DNA from: Pseudomonadota bacterium
Lineage (GTDB): Bacteria; Pseudomonadota; Gammaproteobacteria; Eutrophobiales; Eutrophobiaceae
Direction: 5' to 3'
DNA: 64,000 nt
Assembly (NCBI GenBank): GCA_038142205.1
Contig: JAYQJO010000001.1
Location: 2,176,430 to 2,240,429 of the forward strand
Part shown: piece after piece, positions 11,712 to 16,281 of the stretch
Layout: each line of letters begins with the position of its first letter
Position numbering within the stretch: position 1 is the stretch's first letter
Notes under the pieces: model-generated
The model's database searches: none
What the model was told of the DNA's origin: nothing
What the model saw: only the letters and a program-made list of their open reading frames with translations
Made by a program: the position numbers and the translations under genes

Positions 11712-12383
11712 GTGAATCGTGAACACCGATCGAATCTGATTTCAAAATTGTCAGACGTAATTAACGACGATCGTATAGAACGGCTGCAAGAAGTATTAAA
11801 TCAACGTACCCGTTATCTCACCGTTGTACTCGATGATATCTATCAACCACAAAACTCCAGCGCGGTTATTCGCACTTGTGAATGTATTGGCATACAGGAC
11901 TTGCACATCATAGAAGACAGAAACGCGCATAAAACAAGCCGAGATGTTGTTAAAGGCTCATCAAAATGGATAAGCCTGAATCATCATGATAAGAACCGGA
12001 TTGATTGCATAAAAAAACTAAGAGATAACGATTACAACATCGTTGCAATGACATTAAGCGAAGACAGTATTCCACTTGAGTCTTTACCCATAAATGAAAA
12101 GCTCGCACTCTGTTTCGGTTGTGAGGAAACAGGACTCGACAAAGAAATTGAAGAAAGCGCTGACTATAAAGTACAAATCCCCATACATGGATTTACTCAA
12201 AGCTATAATATTTCCGTCAGTGCCGGCATCAGTCTTTATTACTTATACAATAAAATAAAAACAACAGAACAAAGCTGGCAGCTTAGTAATGCAGAAAAGG
12301 AAGAATTGCTTATTGACTGGCTGAGTAAATCAACACCGACCGGACAGTTCTTACTTGATAAATACAAAGAAGAAATACCTTAA
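11712..12383 (+). CDS. trmH: SpoU/TrmH-family tRNA (guanosine-2'-O)-methyltransferase
   Basis: 223 aa with SPOUT motifs (LTVVLDDIYQPQNSSAVIRTCECIG...). Its stop TAA at 12381-12383 overlaps the end of attC-like site 3. Confidence 0.7.
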   Translation: MNREHRSNLISKLSDVINDDRIERLQEVLNQRTRYLTVVLDDIYQPQNSSAVIRTCECIGIQDLHIIEDRNAHKTSRDVVKGSSKWISLNHHDKNRIDCIKKLRDNDYNIVAMTLSEDSIPLESLPINEKLALCFGCEETGLDKEIEESADYKVQIPIHGFTQSYNISVSAGISLYYLYNKIKTTEQSWQLSNAEKEELLIDWLSKSTPTGQFLLDKYKEEIP

Positions 12384-12440
12384 CGTTTTAACTCAGGGGC
12401 GCGCCGACTAGGCGCGTCGCTTTGGAGTGACTTGTTATGT
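12378..12440 (-). repeat. attC-like recombination site 3 (3' end of cassette 3)
   Basis: Minus-strand reading: R''-like ACATAAC (plus 12434-12440), a central imperfect palindrome GGCGCGCC-GACTA-GGCGCG(T)C, and R'-like GTTAAGG (plus 12378-12384). The plus-strand ends TAACG / CTTGTTATGT are shared with sites 1 and 2. Confidence 0.55.
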
Positions 12441-12782
12441 TGCATTTTCATGCGTTCATTCCCAGCATACCGCAATAGAACCAACCAACAATAGCAACGA
12501 ATGTAATTCCTTTGCCCCATATATAATTTCGCTTTTTCAAACCAAACGTAATTAACCCTATTAAAAGGATAAGAACTGCGACATAAATCAATTTGAACGT
12601 AAGACTATTTACAGGCTCAGTTAATACAGATATAGGGCCGATTATTGCTCCTAGTATAAAAACCCATATTCCTAATGGGTCTGCATCAAACATTGCTAAA
12701 AGTAACATCCCAATTACAAGGGCAAGCATGAGTAATCCCATAAATGTAATGAATGATGTATTTAATTTATCCTGCAACATAA
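12384..12782 (-). mobile_element. Integron gene cassette 3 (about 399 bp)
   Basis: Bounded by the G|TT crossover points of attC sites 2 and 3. It contains one small minus-strand ORF. Confidence 0.5.
12448..12780 (-). CDS. Small 3-TM membrane protein (cassette ORF)
   Basis: 110-aa hydrophobic ORF. Its ATG lies inside the GTTATGT core at the cassette boundary. The stop TGA is 7 nt before the R'' box of attC site 3. No recognisable RBS, so the call is low-confidence. Confidence 0.35.
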   Translation of the reverse strand: MLQDKLNTSFITFMGLLMLALVIGMLLLAMFDADPLGIWVFILGAIIGPISVLTEPVNSLTFKLIYVAVLILLIGLITFGLKKRNYIWGKGITFVAIVGWFYCGMLGMNA

Positions 12783-12831
12783 CGCCTAGCGAACCGGCGG
12801 CGAAGCCGTCGGGTTACGCGCCTTGTTAGAT
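12777..12831 (-). repeat. attC-like recombination site 2 (3' end of cassette 2)
   Basis: Minus-strand R'' ATCTAAC (perfect RYYYAAC; plus 12825-12831) begins 5 nt after the TGA stop of the TIR-like ORF. Internal imperfect palindrome GCGAACCGGCGGC / GCCGTCGGGTTACGC carries 2 extra bases on one arm. R' is GTTATGT (plus 12777-12783). Confidence 0.6.
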
Positions 12832-14012
12832 GTGATTCAGAGTGCAAGTTTCTTCATTTCATTGATGGCTTCAAGTAATCTAATCGTTGCATCGCCGTCT
12901 AAAGTTTCTCCTTGGTACCTTACTTCAAAAAGCCCTTGCAGATTGGATGGTAGCTTAACCCCGTCTTTTACCAACAAAATAAATCTCTTTCCGTAAAGAC
13001 CCATAGCCGCCCCAATTTCTATTAAAACGTTTGGATTAAGCATAACTACTTCATTAGCATCTGAATCTAAGAGTTTTCGTTCATCCTCAACATGTATTAT
13101 TGCGGCGCCACAATCCCTCATGTCCGACATGACTTTTTCTGGTACTGGCTTTGACACCGATTGTTTTTCTACAGATACAACTGGCTCTAACTCACCAAAT
13201 GCAAGTAATTTTTTAATAGGTTCTACGAACTGCTTGTTTTTCCCATGGGTAATAAATACTTTTTTCTTTCGCAGCTCATTTTCCTGCGTGCTTTCGTCAA
13301 CGCGTGAGGAGGCGGCTTGGCTTGAGGAGGAAGACTGATTTACGACGCCTGAATCTTCTTGTTGATCCAGCTCATCATTTTCAAATTCTGCTTCATCTTC
13401 CTCATAGTCATCTTCTTCGGCTGCAGTGGGGATCGCCTTAAGATCAACGTACTGTTTATCTTTAATCTTTTTTAGTAGGCCCAGCCCTTCGGCTCCTTCC
13501 TGGATTAACTTGAACGTCTTTAACGTTCTATCTCGAGGAACATTCATTTCAGCCAGTACGTTAGAGGCAATGTTTTCTTTTGGAAAAGGTGACCCGTCAT
13601 ACTTCCTTAAAAACTCACCGATAATTCTTGGTTTCAACATTGCTTCTTTTTTAGCAATCAAATCATCCCCTTCAATAGTTGGAGTGACAATTCTTTTGCC
13701 TAGTTCTGAAATTTCAATTTCCGCTGAATTATAGCTCCCTGATGTCAGCCCATACGCCGCTGACGCGCCACACAGCATACGGAAGGGACCGGAAGTGGGT
13801 TGCACATCAAGAGCAGCGGCAACATTAAGGGGGCTGGAGGGGTTTGATCCATAGTTATCAGCGATAGCGTTAATAATTTTTAAAGCCTGATCAATTGACA
13901 TGCTTGGTACATCACTTTGCTTTAATGCGACTTTACGCTTCTTGGGTGTCGCTTTTCCTTTCTCAGCTATTTATTTCCCCTAAATTTAAATTTTGCGATT
14001 TTTTACATCTAA
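12783..14012 (-). mobile_element. Integron gene cassette 2 (about 1230 bp) carrying the TIR-like gene
   Basis: Starts with TTAGAT, which is complementary to the R'' box ATCTAAC of its own attC (site 2). This is the expected cassette-circle relationship. Confidence 0.55.
12837..13901 (-). CDS. TIR-like (COG4271 / CAP12-PycTIR-like) domain protein with an uncharacterised N-terminal domain
   Basis: 354 aa. The C-terminal about 130 aa (KKVFITHGKNKQFVEPIKKLL ... NPNVLIEIGAAMGLYGKRFILLVKDGVKLPSNLQGLFEV) fit the conserved pattern of 'predicted nucleotide-binding protein containing TIR-like domain'. The N-terminal about 160 aa match nothing I recognise. An acidic/Ser-rich linker (EEDDYEEDEAEFENDELDQQEDSG...SSSSSQ) lies between them. 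Confidence 0.7.
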   Translation of the reverse strand: MSIDQALKIINAIADNYGSNPSSPLNVAAALDVQPTSGPFRMLCGASAAYGLTSGSYNSAEIEISELGKRIVTPTIEGDDLIAKKEAMLKPRIIGEFLRKYDGSPFPKENIASNVLAEMNVPRDRTLKTFKLIQEGAEGLGLLKKIKDKQYVDLKAIPTAAEEDDYEEDEAEFENDELDQQEDSGVVNQSSSSSQAASSRVDESTQENELRKKKVFITHGKNKQFVEPIKKLLAFGELEPVVSVEKQSVSKPVPEKVMSDMRDCGAAIIHVEDERKLLDSDANEVVMLNPNVLIEIGAAMGLYGKRFILLVKDGVKLPSNLQGLFEVRYQGETLDGDATIRLLEAINEMKKLAL

Positions 14013-14065
14013 CGCCTAAAGCATGGGCGCAGCTTTGCTGCGTCCAATGCCTTTACTTGTTATGG
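14007..14065 (-). repeat. attC-like recombination site 1 (3' end of cassette 1)
   Basis: Minus strand: R''-like CCATAAC (plus 14059-14065), palindrome GCTGCGCCCATGCTTTAGGC / GCTGCGTCCAATGCCTTTAC with extra bases on one arm, and a perfect R' GTTAGAT (plus 14007-14013). The stop codon of the upstream ORF (14053-14055) lies inside the site. Confidence 0.6.
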
Positions 14066-14721
14066 CTTTTGACCTCTTGTATTGATACCTTAGCCATATT
14101 TGTTAGCCAATTTGTTTCGTGTAGGACCATTAAGTAATTTTTTCCATTATGGTTAAACGGCCACTGTGTACCCGGCTTAACATCTTTCAAATGATCACCG
14201 CCTTTACCTGGCAGCGTAACTTGAACATCTGCAGTGTAGTTTGGATTAAAACTGTTAACCCCAAGTGATGCAGTAGTTAAAGGATCAAAGAAAGCACCGC
14301 CTTTCTCTATTTTTGCACCATTGTAATAGGGTTTATCTAGGGGGTTAGATTCAACAGATGATGCAGCCTTTTGGCTTGCTTCTTTCATCAAGCTTGCGTT
14401 TGTCGCTTCTAGCTCTTTGACTTTGCTTTCAAGGTGCGGGATAGTTTTTGGCGTATTTACTAGCCAGCTATGTAGTTTATTATTTTCTAGGGTTAAGTGC
14501 GATATGCGACTTTCAAGGACTTCTACTTTGGCTTTGTATTGCCCTGTCTGAGCTTTTAGATTCTCAACTTCAGCTTTATGTACGTTGAGTTTATTCTCAT
14601 CGAATACGAAAGCAAATGCAGCCCAAGTGATACCTGACACTAAAAACGTATGACCCAATATTGATCTAATTGGGTGATCCTCAAACCAGTTACTCAATCT
14701 TTATTCTCCTTTAGGCCATAA
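14013..14721 (-). mobile_element. Integron gene cassette 1 (about 709 bp), first cassette next to attI
   Basis: Begins TTATGG right after the G of the attI-side GTTATGG core (plus 14716-14722). Its own attC R'' CCATAAC is exactly complementary to that start. A short 5' leader carries the SD AAGGAG. Confidence 0.55.
14053..14697 (-). CDS. Membrane-anchored coiled-coil protein of unknown function (cassette ORF)
   Basis: 214 aa. TTG start preceded by the strong SD AAAGGAGAATAAAGA. N-terminal TM helix (ILGHTFLVSGITWAAFAFVF), a heptad-rich coiled coil of about 70 aa (KAEVENLKAQTGQYKAKVEVLESRISHLTLENNKLH...), and a C-terminal Gly/Asn-rich globular domain of about 100 aa. Confidence 0.55.
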   Translation of the reverse strand: MSNWFEDHPIRSILGHTFLVSGITWAAFAFVFDENKLNVHKAEVENLKAQTGQYKAKVEVLESRISHLTLENNKLHSWLVNTPKTIPHLESKVKELEATNASLMKEASQKAASSVESNPLDKPYYNGAKIEKGGAFFDPLTTASLGVNSFNPNYTADVQVTLPGKGGDHLKDVKPGTQWPFNHNGKNYLMVLHETNWLTNMAKVSIQEVKSHNK

Positions 14722-15005
14722 CTATATTTTAACGGACACTTTGTCCGATATACTGCTATAGATTTTGAAAGTGGACTTCATGAAAACCCTCCTTGTTTCA
14801 ATAAGATATGTGATAGATTAATTATAGTAGCTCTATATCTATAGTGTCCACTTTGCTGTTTTTCATATCTAAATTGAGTATGCCCCTATATTTAAAATAT
14901 CCTCTTAAATGAGGATTTATTTATGATTTATCAATAACATATAATATTTACAGAATTATTCATATCGGACACTTTTTTACTTATAAACCCAAGGAGCGGG
15001 TATTT
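14716..15005. promoter_or_regulatory. Putative attI site and divergent promoter region (leftward Pc-like, rightward intI)
   Basis: The GTTATGG core abuts cassette 1. There are four copies of a GGAC(A)CTTT / GTGGACAC motif (14745, 14775, 14852-14865, 14966). On the minus strand, TGGACA-N18-TATAAT (about 14822-14862) points toward the cassettes. An AAGGAG SD precedes the intI ATG. Confidence 0.4.
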
Positions 15006-15404
15006 ATGCAAACTAAGCGACCTCCAAAGTTACTAGATCAGGTAAGGCAGCAAATTCATTTCCTACATTATTCTAGACAAACAGAAAAAGCATATGTGCA
15101 TTGGGTTCGTCGTTATATTTTATTTCATAATAAACGTCATCCCAAAGACATGGCTGGAGAAGAGTTAGCCCGCTTTTTAAATTATTTAGTGAATAAAGAA
15201 AACGTTTCAGCTTCTACACAAAATCAAGCATTAACTGCAATCATATTTTTGTATAAACAGATCCTAAATATTGATGTTGGAGAAATTCCTGAGTTTCAAT
15301 ACGCACGTAAACCCAAACGCCTTCTGGTTGTATTAAATCAAAATGAAGTTAAACGTGTGTTTGAATTTTTAAATGAACCACATAAAACCATGGTCACTTG
15401 TTAA
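15006..15404 (+). pseudogene. intI: Integron integrase IntI, N-terminal 132-aa fragment (3' truncated)
   Basis: LDQVRQQIHFLHYSRQTEKAYVHWVRRYILFHNKRHPKDMAGEELARFLNYLVNKENVSASTQNQALTAIIFLYKQIL...RLLVVLNQNEVKRVF is near-collinear with the IntI1 N-terminus ([37 protein letters not shown]...). It stops at aa 132 of an expected ~320. The catalytic RHRY region is absent, and djlA follows convergently. Confidence 0.8.
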
Positions 15405-15480
15405 AAGGACGGTGTTAAATCTCCTTTGAATAACCTTTAATTTTAAAAAAATCGTTATATAAATTATTGGCGACTAAACA

Positions 15481-16281
15481 TTAAAGATTTTTTGCTTTTT
15501 TTATCACTTCATAAGCCTTTCTTATTTCATGAGTTCGATCAGCTGCGATTTTCATCATTTCTTCCGGCAATCCTTTTGCGACCAATTTATCAGGATGATG
15601 CTGACTTAATAATCGACGGTATGCTTTTTTGATTTCAGCAGGACTGGCTGACTCATCAATATCCAGTACTTCATAGGCCTGTTTTAATGATGGTGCACCA
15701 TCATTGCGAGCGGCACCGGATGAGCTACTATGCATCCCGCCAATCATGGCACACAGGTGTTCGAACTCATGCTGTGAAATCTTGAGTGGCTGACAGATGT
15801 TTAATAAGACTTTGCGTTCTTCTGCATGCATGACTCCATCAGCATAAGCGGCCATGATCTGTACTTCGATAAACATGCGTAACAGATTTGGTCGAAAGCC
15901 AACTTCCTGACGAAACTGTTTTATCACATCATTTAATGGAAAAGCCGGCTTCTTACCTTCATTAAATAATTCAATAGCCGCTTTACGTTGTTCTGCATTC
16001 ATATCCATTTGTTGCATGACTTGTTTAGCGAGTGATATTTCATCTTTGGTAACCTGACCGTCAGCCATGCATATATGTCCCATAACAGAAAAGGTTGCGG
16101 TATAGAACAACGTTTGTGCGCGTTCCTGCCGCCCAAAAGCAGATTGCCTAGTCGATGATGCTGAAGAATCATTAAGACCTTTATCAAAGTTATGGCCTAA
16201 TGCTGCACCTAATAGCGCACCAATAGGTCCTCCGATCATCATGCCGAAAGTTCCGCCGAGTATTTTTCCCCACCAATTCAT
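15481..16281 (-). CDS. djlA: Co-chaperone DjlA (DnaJ-like membrane protein)
   Basis: 266 aa, MNWWGKILGG... N-terminal TM, TerB-like middle and a C-terminal J-domain (HPDKLVAKGLPEEMMKIAADRTHEIRKAYEVIK). Confidence 0.85.
   Translation of the reverse strand: MNWWGKILGGTFGMMIGGPIGALLGAALGHNFDKGLNDSSASSTRQSAFGRQERAQTLFYTATFSVMGHICMADGQVTKDEISLAKQVMQQMDMNAEQRKAAIELFNEGKKPAFPLNDVIKQFRQEVGFRPNLLRMFIEVQIMAAYADGVMHAEERKVLLNICQPLKISQHEFEHLCAMIGGMHSSSSGAARNDGAPSLKQAYEVLDIDESASPAEIKKAYRRLLSQHHPDKLVAKGLPEEMMKIAADRTHEIRKAYEVIKKAKNL

Follow-up and report, generated by a model that had tools for sequence, protein, structure and literature searches.

Three attC sites beside a truncated integrase gene: a probable remnant of a small chromosomal integron in an uncultured marine gammaproteobacterium

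Three short repeats located between a SpoU-family gene and djlA in the chromosome of an uncultured marine gammaproteobacterium are most probably the attC sites of a small chromosomal integron, which would now survive as a frozen, CALIN-type remnant with a stump of intI. We put the probability of this reading at about 93%. The repeats lie in a 64-kb stretch of DNA that was analyzed as a whole (hereafter the window). The element is ordinary and well understood in kind, leaves current understanding unchallenged, and adds one eroded chromosomal integron of known type from an uncultured marine gammaproteobacterium. Its main use is in annotation, where it sets the cassette boundaries, the predicted attI crossover and a defence-like TIR-domain cassette.

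A three-cassette array at the SpoU-djlA locus

Read from high to low coordinates, the layout is a truncated intI on the plus strand, attI with a candidate Pc promoter, and three minus-strand cassettes, each consisting of an ORF followed by its attC (Table 1). All three cassette ORFs are on the minus strand and the intI stump is on the plus strand, with the array downstream of attI and divergent from intI. Each attC is located directly 3′ of one minus-strand ORF, whose stop codon lies 13 nt inside site 1, 5 nt off site 2 or 7 nt off site 3. The cassette 2 protein matches PF10137 (3.3e-18), the PADLOC candidate PDC-S35 (1.2e-15) and also TIR effector models.

Table 1. Features of the array and its flanks (positions in the window)
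Feature	Position	Strand	Description
SpoU/TrmH-family RNA methyltransferase gene (left flank)	11712..12383	+	Chromosomal backbone; homology with related strains ends at ~12377
attC site 3	12378..12440	+ (bottom, recombinogenic strand)	63 nt; last of the array; R′ CCTTAAC, loop GACTA, R″ GTTATGT
Cassette 3 ORF	12448..12780	-	Cassette 12384-12782, 399 bp; 110 aa (97 aa in public gene calls), small hydrophobic protein
attC site 2	12777..12831	+	55 nt; R′ ACATAAC, loop GAA, R″ GTTAGAT
Cassette 2 ORF	12837..13901	-	Cassette 12783-14012, 1230 bp; 354 aa, C-terminal CAP12/Pycsar-type TIR domain
attC site 1	14007..14065	+	59 nt; nearest attI; R′ ATCTAAC, loop TTT, R″ GTTATGG
Cassette 1 ORF	14053..14697	-	Cassette 14013-14721, 709 bp; 214 aa, coiled-coil, without family match
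attI and promoter region	14719..15005		Aligned with seven related integrons; repeated GGACACTTTGTCC / GTGTCCACTTTG motifs
Candidate Pc promoter	14821..14850	-	TGGACA-18-TATAAT, 11/12 matches, points into the array; consensus match only
Truncated integron-integrase gene	15006..15404	+	132 aa, N-terminal SAM-like domain only, without catalytic domain
ACTTGTTA 8-mer	15396..15403	+	Exactly where intI homology ends; equals the R″-side ends of sites 1 and 3
djlA co-chaperone gene (right flank)	15481..16281	-	NF006948, 326 bits; backbone homology resumes at ~15470-15480

The first-pass annotation had described three sites with TAACG and CTTGTTA ends, and a search of the window with the pattern TAACG-N(35-60)-CTTGTTA returned exactly three matches, all on the plus strand (12381-12437, 12780-12828 and 14010-14062). 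The chance level is 0.30 ± 0.52 matches, and three or more were found in 0 of 100 shuffles. Further copies, which would mark additional arrays, do not occur within the 64 kb. The limits and lengths given for the sites hold with the 7-nt R boxes included, and the central palindromes quoted for them are present in the sequence. Rfam gave no match across the whole window.

The locus appears to be a fixed one. The element had been proposed to be chromosomal, and the SpoU-djlA backbone flanks are indeed kept in related strains, where the interval holds other cassettes, an attC with an attI remnant, or nothing. Strains whose SpoU is 94-95% identical have no cassettes or different ones, and at the SpoU stop of one related strain, a site-3-like attC is preserved in its left part. 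In the related genome L005, a stretch of 6 kb holds at least 10 attCs, and several of these share up to 95% identity. The decay states of the SpoU-djlA locus seen in different strains could be used as a natural series of integron loss. An intact intI at the SpoU-djlA locus was sought among the strains, and the contigs found were without intI or ended too early. The flanking genes of the window were also looked for beside the closest IntI relatives and none was found, indicating no co-linearity between this IntI clade and the host backbone in the genomes concerned.

Folding and covariance-model detection of the attC sites

The AAC/GTT core is present on the plus strand of all three sites, while the R-box positions outside the core vary. 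ATCTAAC (R′ of site 1) and GTTAGAT (R″ of site 2) fully match RYYYAAC/GTTRRRY; the other four 7-mers, e.g., CCTTAAC and GTTATGG, deviate at one or two positions. Published attC lengths range over 57-141 bp (PMC5027507, PMC5371416). Sites 1 and 3 are above the published minimum of 56/57 nt and site 2 is 1-2 nt below it.

When folded, the plus strand would form a TAAC/GTTA R box, an unpaired spacer of 4-6 nt, a short L box and a loop of 3-5 nt, with bulges predicted only on the 3′ (R″-L″) arm and a G.T wobble at position 23/24. We folded the sites with the TAAC/GTTA pairs enforced and numbered the positions from the 3′ end; this numbering was validated on the real class 1 attC-aadA1, where it yields G16 and T23, the positions reported for attC-aadA7 (PMC5027507). 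The first-pass annotation had placed extra bases on the plus-strand right arm (R″-L″), the side known from studied attC sites (PMC5027507), and the constrained folds bear this out with an excess of unpaired bases on the 3′ arm in 3/3 sites. In site 1, C16 and A20 are bulged and a G.T pair forms at position 23. In site 2, unpaired bases on the 3′ arm exceed those on the 5′ arm by two (A16 and G21 by hand pairing; A16/T17/G19 against one 5′ base in the MFE structure), again with a G.T pair at position 23. In site 3, G17-T18-T19 bulge out from the 3′ arm and the G.T pair is at position 24. The spacer takes 2-5 nt per arm in the MFE structures, or 5-6 nt by hand pairing with a 3-bp L box; the attC plan has ~5-6 unpaired nt on each arm.

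Structure prediction for both strands also favors the plus strand in 3/3 sites, as expected for the bottom strand. The plus and minus fold energies of the three sites are -13.3/-8.8, -11.7/-9.9 and -13.9/-12.8 kcal/mol, i.e., the plus strand is more stable by 4.5, 1.8 and 1.1 kcal/mol. The mean bottom-strand advantage in the literature is 2.12 kcal/mol, with 1.24 G:T pairs on the bottom strand vs 0.39 on the top strand (PMC5027507); each of the three sites has one in-stem G.T on the plus strand. In several details, the sites depart from the published picture. The T at 23/24 faces G as a wobble pair in 3/3 sites and is not predicted to be unpaired, whereas the conserved T is extrahelical in the literature; a G.T of the same kind is found in 10 of 13 sites from relatives. 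Across the three sites, the base bulged first varies among C, A and G and is G in only one, whereas in the literature the base at position 16 is usually G and a further extrahelical base at position 20 is optional. Bulges are spaced by 1-4 bp, and by none in site 3, whereas the reported optimum for IntI1 is a 6-bp stem (PMC5027507). Purine enrichment of the plus strand, reported for mobile attCs, was looked for in the three sites and is absent.

For attC detection, we used a covariance model (R2) built from 13 attCs of relatives, none from the window, whose source integrons carry an intact IntI. The model started from a hand-written structure on three L005 sites, followed by covariance-model realignment; RNAalifold predicted no structure from a MAFFT alignment of 13 related sites, owing to misaligned stems. 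On the plus strand, R2 scored site 3 at 65.0 bits (E 2.4e-14), site 1 at 52.1 bits (E 6.3e-11) and site 2 at 27.8 bits (E 1.8e-4), where the E-values of R2 and of the earlier model R1, both self-built, are rough. Site 2 was significant in R2 only (E 0.085 with R1). Every minus-strand version scored at most 13.3 bits (site 3, 12.6; site 1, 13.3), and the best match beyond the three sites in 128 kb reached 15.5 bits (E 0.34). R2 also recovered the class 1 sites attC-aadA1 (44.4 bits), attC-aadA16 and attC-dfrA27 in the correct orientation, within a range of 35-44 bits. In relatives, 21/21 matches were on the plus strand upstream of intI, and compensatory changes were found at 10/19 model pairs. 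Model scores, folds and bulge side thus agree with the original call of attC sites in which the plus strand is the recombinogenic bottom strand and the minus strand is the cassette top strand.

The hairpins might also be read as REP-like dispersed repeats or as intrinsic terminators between convergent or tandem genes, being GC-rich, imperfectly palindromic and intergenic, and a terminator scan flags a sub-hairpin within site 3. However, the 64 kb hold just three copies, and no further site rises above noise with the structure model. No T run follows the hairpins on the coding (minus) strand, and the four terminator-like matches in the region do not exceed the 2.6 ± 1.6 seen in shuffles. Neither repeats nor terminators would predict the AAC/GTT ends, the adjoining attI and intI stump, or the cross-detection of class 1 attCs. 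Given the copy number, the specificity of the model and a terminator scan at shuffle level, we rejected both as practically negligible possibilities.

The sites had been called a related family with conserved ends, which holds for part of the trio. Sites 3 and 1 match the family of the lineage: site 3 shares 81% identity with one L005 attC, and the inner stem GGCGCAGCTTTGCTGCGTC of site 1 is identical in L005 attCs. Both belong to a lineage-specific attC family used by this IntI clade. The trio itself is heterogeneous, with site-to-site identities of 56-62%, close to the 53-55 ± 3% given by shuffled interiors. Site 2 shares 70% identity with attC-aadA1 and 56-58% with sites 1 and 3, and most mobile-integron attCs conserve the same GAA loop on their bottom strand (PMC5027507). 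The divergent, aadA-like character of site 2 suggests that the TIR-domain cassette may have come from another cassette pool.

Integrase stump, attI and the state of the array

The intI stump matches TIGR02249 over positions 1-121 of 315 with 131 bits, below the cut-off of 265, and PF13495 at 5e-29. IntI proteins of 323 aa share 81-87% identity with it over their residues 1-130, and the three of them that were scanned with TIGR02249 reached 430-445 bits, above the cut-off. No other IntI-like sequence is present in the 64-kb window, and IntI residues 131-323 are unmatched anywhere in it. The first-pass annotation, in reporting the attC sites, was silent on the truncation of the integrase.

In the attI alignment, the sequence left of TAAC (14719-14722) is unrelated, and the alignment is conserved rightward to the intI start codon. 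The attI crossover would thus be predicted between the second A and the C of AAC on the plus strand of this TAAC. The candidate Pc overlaps the invariant GTGTCCACTTTG block of the alignment. Alternatively, an integrase encoded at another locus could have placed the cassettes in a secondary chromosomal site, forming a CALIN de novo. Integrase-mediated insertion outside att sites has been described (bioRxiv 10.1101/2022.09.11.507474; PMC4889954), and the SpoU gene takes its final codon and TAA stop from the R′ box of the last attC. A conserved attI and 130 intI codons in canonical position and orientation argue against such an insertion, as do two related strains, one in which this locus retains an attC and a remnant of attI, and another with part of a site-3-like attC. 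We therefore consider a de novo origin very improbable and favor a resident remnant.

How the resident intI was truncated is a separate question. Counting both strands, the window contains ACTTGTTA five times, twice inside attC sites. Because the 8-mer directly adjoins the end of intI homology, intI might have been destroyed by integron-type recombination, in which case the 15395/15396 joint with ACTTGTTA would be an aberrant fusion of an attC end, integrase-mediated or attC-templated, that deleted the catalytic domain; we consider this unlikely. For the 75 nt that separate djlA from the intI stump (15397-15470), searches of all fetched loci and the window gave chance matches only.

In an active integron, IntI would cleave the plus strand after the second A of the R′ AAC and swap cassettes with attI or with another attC; loss of the catalytic two-thirds of the integrase would leave the array frozen. 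Without this part of intI, the array should be unable to rearrange by itself and would be a remnant. An additional integron integrase, encoded intact at another place in the genome, could nevertheless excise and reshuffle the cassettes in trans. Integron integrases recombine divergent attCs, CALINs often occur alongside complete integrons (PMC4889954), and the stems and R boxes of the three sites are still intact. Moreover, in a strain whose SpoU is 95% identical, the terminal attC is conserved and the cassettes behind it differ, implying recent cassette turnover. Against this stand the window, which holds no other IntI-like sequence, and the constancy of the array: six contigs fetched from six samples agree in cassette content and order, with 99.97-100% identity over stump and cassettes, and at least 12 contigs carry an identical stump protein. 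The sole difference among the six contigs is a base that breaks a site 3 stem pair in the window, as expected under relaxed selection; at 12397 in site 3, the window has G and four other metagenome contigs (L081-L084) have C, which restores a stem pair. Activity in trans thus has a minor share of the probability, and a frozen array is the reading that we prefer.

Class of the element and comparison with known systems

A complete integron combines intI with at least one attC, and here the catalytic domain and the IntI-specific C-terminal segment are missing. A CALIN is defined as an attC cluster lacking an integron-integrase (PMC4889954), and the window has three attCs within 1.7 kb next to an intI reduced to an N-terminal stump. 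Sedentary integrons have been delimited by >19 attC sites or by presence in 100% of a species' genomes (PMC4889954); the array falls short of this count with 3 sites and is identical in at least 12 contigs, and strains with a 94-95% identical SpoU have no cassettes or different ones. Mobile classes 1-5, marked by an integrase of one of these classes or by a plasmid or transposon as carrier, do not fit either, as the IntI clade shares 50% identity with IntI1 and the flanks are housekeeping genes conserved in related strains.

The first-pass annotation had taken short attCs with uniform ends as the hallmark of sedentary, VCR-like families, and neither trait carries that meaning. The shared ends extend from the R boxes by only one or a few bases and are generic to attCs; class 1 attC-aadA1 reads ATCTAACG...AATTGTTAGAC. 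As for length, attCs of mobile integrons are also short, at 56-141 bp and mostly <100 bp, and VCRs measure ~120-129 bp (PMC5371416). The attCs of sedentary integrons cluster at 120-129 bp through Vibrio VCRs, and without Vibrio no length difference is seen (PMC5371416). The locus thus offers a worked example in which short attCs with TAACG...TTGTTA ends are generic and not a marker of a sedentary family.

[quoted passage not shown] In contrast to class 1, the T at 23/24 is wobble-paired here (bulged in class 1), the first bulge is C, A or G (usually G), the cassettes have no resistance genes, and the element is chromosomal between housekeeping genes. VCR superintegron families are likewise attC sites of chromosomal integrons, and the related genome L005 also has several attCs that are closely alike. 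VCR-type sites are highly identical to each other and carry long variable terminal structures (PMC5371416), whereas those of the window are half as long (55-63 nt), have loops of 3-5 nt and are mutually dissimilar. Unlike 95% of CALINs, the array retains a recognizable intI remnant, an N-terminal part of the kind that the published pseudogene screen with a C-terminal profile would miss. The array has only three cassettes and heterogeneous attCs, which distinguishes it from eroded sedentary integrons of the Xanthomonas type; with these and with CALINs, it shares a fixed locus that is found in differing states of decay among related strains, an inactivated intI, a short array and cassettes of little-known function (PMC5371416, PMC4889954).

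attC sites and the truncated integrase

The 64-kb window contains exactly three matches to the pattern TAACG-N(35-60)-CTTGTTA (12381-12437, 12780-12828 and 14010-14062, all on the + strand), against a chance expectation of 0.30 ± 0.52, and three or more matches were reached in 0 of 100 shuffles. The limits and lengths obtained with 7-nt end boxes equal those named in the first-pass annotation, and the central palindromes that it quoted were found in the sequence. Folded as single-stranded DNA, the three sites reach -13.3, -11.7 and -13.9 kcal/mol on the + strand versus -8.8, -9.9 and -12.8 kcal/mol on the - strand, with z-scores in the same order of -3.5, -1.1 and -3.2 (+) and -1.5, -0.4 and -2.8 (-).

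We constructed a covariance model (R1) with a hand-written structure from three attCs of L005, a relative with an intact IntI, and derived R2 from it by rebuilding on the 13 best sites among relatives, both without window sequence. In these 13 sites, 91.8% of cells pair versus 25-50% with the partners slid, and compensatory changes occur in 10 of 19 model pairs, in an alignment that is fitted to the model and leans towards structure. The window was scanned using R2 with filters off. Behind the three sites on the + strand, the next best match was on the - strand (15.5 bits, E 0.34), and the opposite strands of sites 1 and 3 scored 13.3 and 12.6 bits (E above 1). All 21 matches with E ≤0.01 in the relatives are on the + strand, upstream of intI. 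R2 behaves as a general attC model because attCs of real class 1 integrons were recovered as well, each oriented as expected (aadA1, 44.4; aadA16, 35.3; dfrA27, 20.5; and weakly arr-3, 15.1 bits). Sites 1-3 are genuine attC sites whose bottom strand is the + strand, and the first-pass annotation had read their hairpins and strand correctly. A REP-like element was ruled out because no further copies of the attC-like repeat exist in the 64-kb window.

Each of the three sites is located directly 3′ of one minus-strand ORF. Upstream of the array, the 132-aa ORF aligns to the integron-integrase model TIGR02249 over positions 1-121 out of 315 and also matches PF13495; its score of 131 bits falls under the TIGR02249 cut-off of 265 solely because the ORF is truncated. 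Residues 1-130 of 323-aa proteins from seven uncultured gammaproteobacterial genomes share 81-87% identity with this stump, and the three of these proteins that were scanned gave 430-445 bits on TIGR02249. The 323-aa IntI proteins of this clade share 50% identity with IntI1. The intI homology ends at 15395 and is followed by a stop codon, djlA begins 76 nt further, and no match to IntI residues 131-323 exists in the 64-kb window. The element is thus a three-cassette chromosomal integron with its integrase reduced to a stump, which by the IntegronFinder definitions (PMC4889954) is a CALIN, an attC cluster lacking an integron-integrase, with an intI remnant. It is one more chromosomal integron remnant, of a kind already known.

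Directly after the truncation joint lies ACTTGTTA, the same 8-mer as the R″-side ends of sites 1 and 3, which has only five copies on both strands of the window. The ~70-75 nt past it match nothing in any fetched locus, and an AT-rich TAAC...GTTA mini-hairpin in this stretch gives a weak covariance-model match.

Features of the element and of compared loci (window coordinates unless another locus is named)
Feature	Locus	Coordinates	Strand	Details
Site 3	window	12378-12440	+	63 nt with 7-nt end boxes; R2 65.0 bits, E 2.4e-14
Cassette 3 ORF	window	12448-12780	-	110 aa
Site 2	window	12777-12831	+	55 nt with 7-nt end boxes; R2 27.8 bits, E 1.8e-4
Cassette 2 ORF	window	12837-13901	-	354 aa
Site 1	window	14007-14065	+	59 nt with 7-nt end boxes; R2 52.1 bits, E 6.3e-11
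Cassette 1 ORF	window	14053-14697	-	214 aa
attI/promoter region	window	14719-15005		begins at TAAC (14719-14722)
Motif copy	window	~14734		GGACACTTTGTCC
Motif copy	window	~14779		AAGTGGAC
Motif copy	window	~14846		GTGTCCACTTTG
Motif copy	window	~14969		CGGACACTTTT
Candidate Pc	window	14850-14821		TGGACA-18-TATAAT
intI stump	window	15006-15404	+	132 aa
8-mer after joint	window	15396-15403		ACTTGTTA
Mini-hairpin	window	15428-15460		14.1 bits, E 0.81
djlA	window	15481-16281	-	
Region at SpoU stop	L087	6660-6700		TAACGTCAACTCTCAG
Lone attC	L089	8060-8122		44.9 bits
attI-region remnant	L089	8548-8681		134 nt
attC at SpoU stop	L095	1926-1991		55.7 bits
attC-aadA1	L092	4393-4452		class 1

attI region and cassettes

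Between the intI stump and cassette 1 lie 284 nt that can be aligned with the sequence preceding intI in each of the seven relatives. Conservation begins exactly at TAAC, left of which the sequences are unrelated, and this edge bears the signature of the attI crossover. A strong sigma-70-like match qualifies as a candidate Pc, since it is oriented towards the array and overlies an invariant block. The region also contains four copies of a conserved motif, (near-)invariant in the seven related integrons; one overlaps the -35 box of the candidate Pc and the last is just upstream of the intI ribosome-binding site. These motifs could be binding sites for the integrase or a regulator.

Cut between A and C of each AAC, the cassettes measure 709, 1230 and 399 bp. 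The cassette 2 protein has a C-terminal CAP12/Pycsar-type TIR domain (PF10137, 3.3e-18). Further matches are to PDC-S35, a PADLOC defence candidate (1.2e-15), and to TIR effector models of CBASS/Pycsar, and because of these matches cassette 2 may be a single-gene anti-phage cassette. The longest cassette 3 ORF begins inside site 2: its ATG (12778-12780) falls in the R′ box, which reads GTTATGT on the top strand. In public gene calls the start is placed further downstream, and the protein has 97 aa.

The overall GC skew of the 64-kb window is -0.057. If this skew reflects replication, the bottom strands would tentatively be placed on the leading-strand template, the usual orientation in sedentary integrons (PMC5371416).

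The SpoU-djlA locus in other strains

An identical stump protein is encoded in at least 12 metagenome contigs. The six that were fetched came from six samples and match the window over the array at 99.97-100% identity, and the four that span it entirely (L081-L084) each carry C instead of the window G at 12397, the only differing base over the whole 3.8-kb element. With G, a C-G stem pair in site 3 is lost to a G.G mismatch, and the fold reaches -12.7 kcal/mol versus -15.8 with C.

Strains with a related SpoU-family methyltransferase share the backbone prmA ... dsbD-cutA-fxsA-spoU / djlA and differ in the contents of the gap. L095 (SpoU 95%) has two different cassettes and a further attC (60 bits) in addition to the site-3-like attC at the SpoU stop. 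L089 (86%) retains one attC and, adjoining djlA, an attI remnant without intI, and represents a more advanced erosion stage at the same locus. The gap of L087 (94%) contains only the left part of a site-3-like attC, and L090, L096 and L098 (80-81%) carry unrelated genes without attC. The integron is thus resident at the SpoU-djlA locus, with cassettes turned over among close strains and erosion under way in several.

At the SpoU stop itself, L095 keeps a full site-3-like attC followed by different cassettes, and L087 keeps TAACGTCAACTCTCAG despite having no cassettes. The last codon and stop codon of the SpoU gene in the window come from the R′ box of site 3 (12378-12384); the C-terminus reads ...EEIP* there and ...ETN*/...ETK* in L087 and L089.

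Family relations and comparison with canonical attCs

The first-pass annotation regarded the sites as a related family with conserved ends. The ends are indeed shared, but they are generic, as those of attC-aadA1 (ATCTAACG...AATTGTTAGAC) are alike, and pairwise identity is 56-62% versus 53-55 ± 3% with shuffled interiors. An L005 attC matches site 3 at 81% identity, and one matches site 1 at 72% and has the inner stem GGCGCAGCTTTGCTGCGTC in common with it, whereas site 2, which has a GAA loop, is nearest to attC-aadA1 (70%). Sites 3 and 1 are thus members of the attC family of this IntI clade, and site 2 is an outlier. L005 carries a dense array of that family, with at least 10 sites within 6 kb, some of which share 95% identity. 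Short length had also been taken as the mark of a sedentary family, but length is no indicator: in mobile integrons, attCs span 56-141 bp and are mostly shorter than 100 bp, and Vibrio accounts for the 120-129 bp mode of sedentary integrons; without it there is no length difference (PMC5371416). A VCR-like sedentary family unlike mobile arrays is not supported.

Folds were made with TAAC/GTTA pairing enforced, and bases of the 3′ arm were numbered inwards from the 3′ end so that the 7-nt box occupies positions 1-7. This numbering agrees with PMC5027507, since attC-aadA1 gives unpaired G16 and T23, the two positions reported there for attC-aadA7. In these constrained folds all three sites carry their excess bases on the 3′ arm, the side where the first-pass annotation had placed them (+ strand right arm). 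Site 1 has bulges C16 and A20, a G.T wobble at position 23 and a TTT loop; site 2 has A16 and G21 by hand (A16/T17/G19 versus one 5′ base in the MFE fold), G.T at 23 and its GAA loop; and site 3 has G17-T18-T19, a G.T wobble at 24 and a GACTA loop. In the alignment of relatives' attCs (A7, columns 28/60), the T at the canonical T23/24 position faces G in 10 of 13 sites, as in 3 of 3 window sites, which makes a G.T wobble in the bottom strand and leaves a C.A mismatch in the top one.

Canonical bottom strands have R′ = RYYYAAC, R″ = GTTRRRY, a spacer of 5-6 nt per arm, extrahelical bases near L″ that comprise position 16 (usually G), sometimes 20 and a conserved T at 23/24, and, in mobile integrons, short loops that are often GAA; they are enriched in G:T pairs and ~2.1 kcal/mol more stable than top strands (PMC5027507). 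The predicted folds of sites 1-3 follow this plan except on three points: only one of the three has G as its first bulge, the T at 23/24 is opposite a G rather than unpaired, and the bulges are separated by less than the 6 bp reported to be optimal for IntI1.
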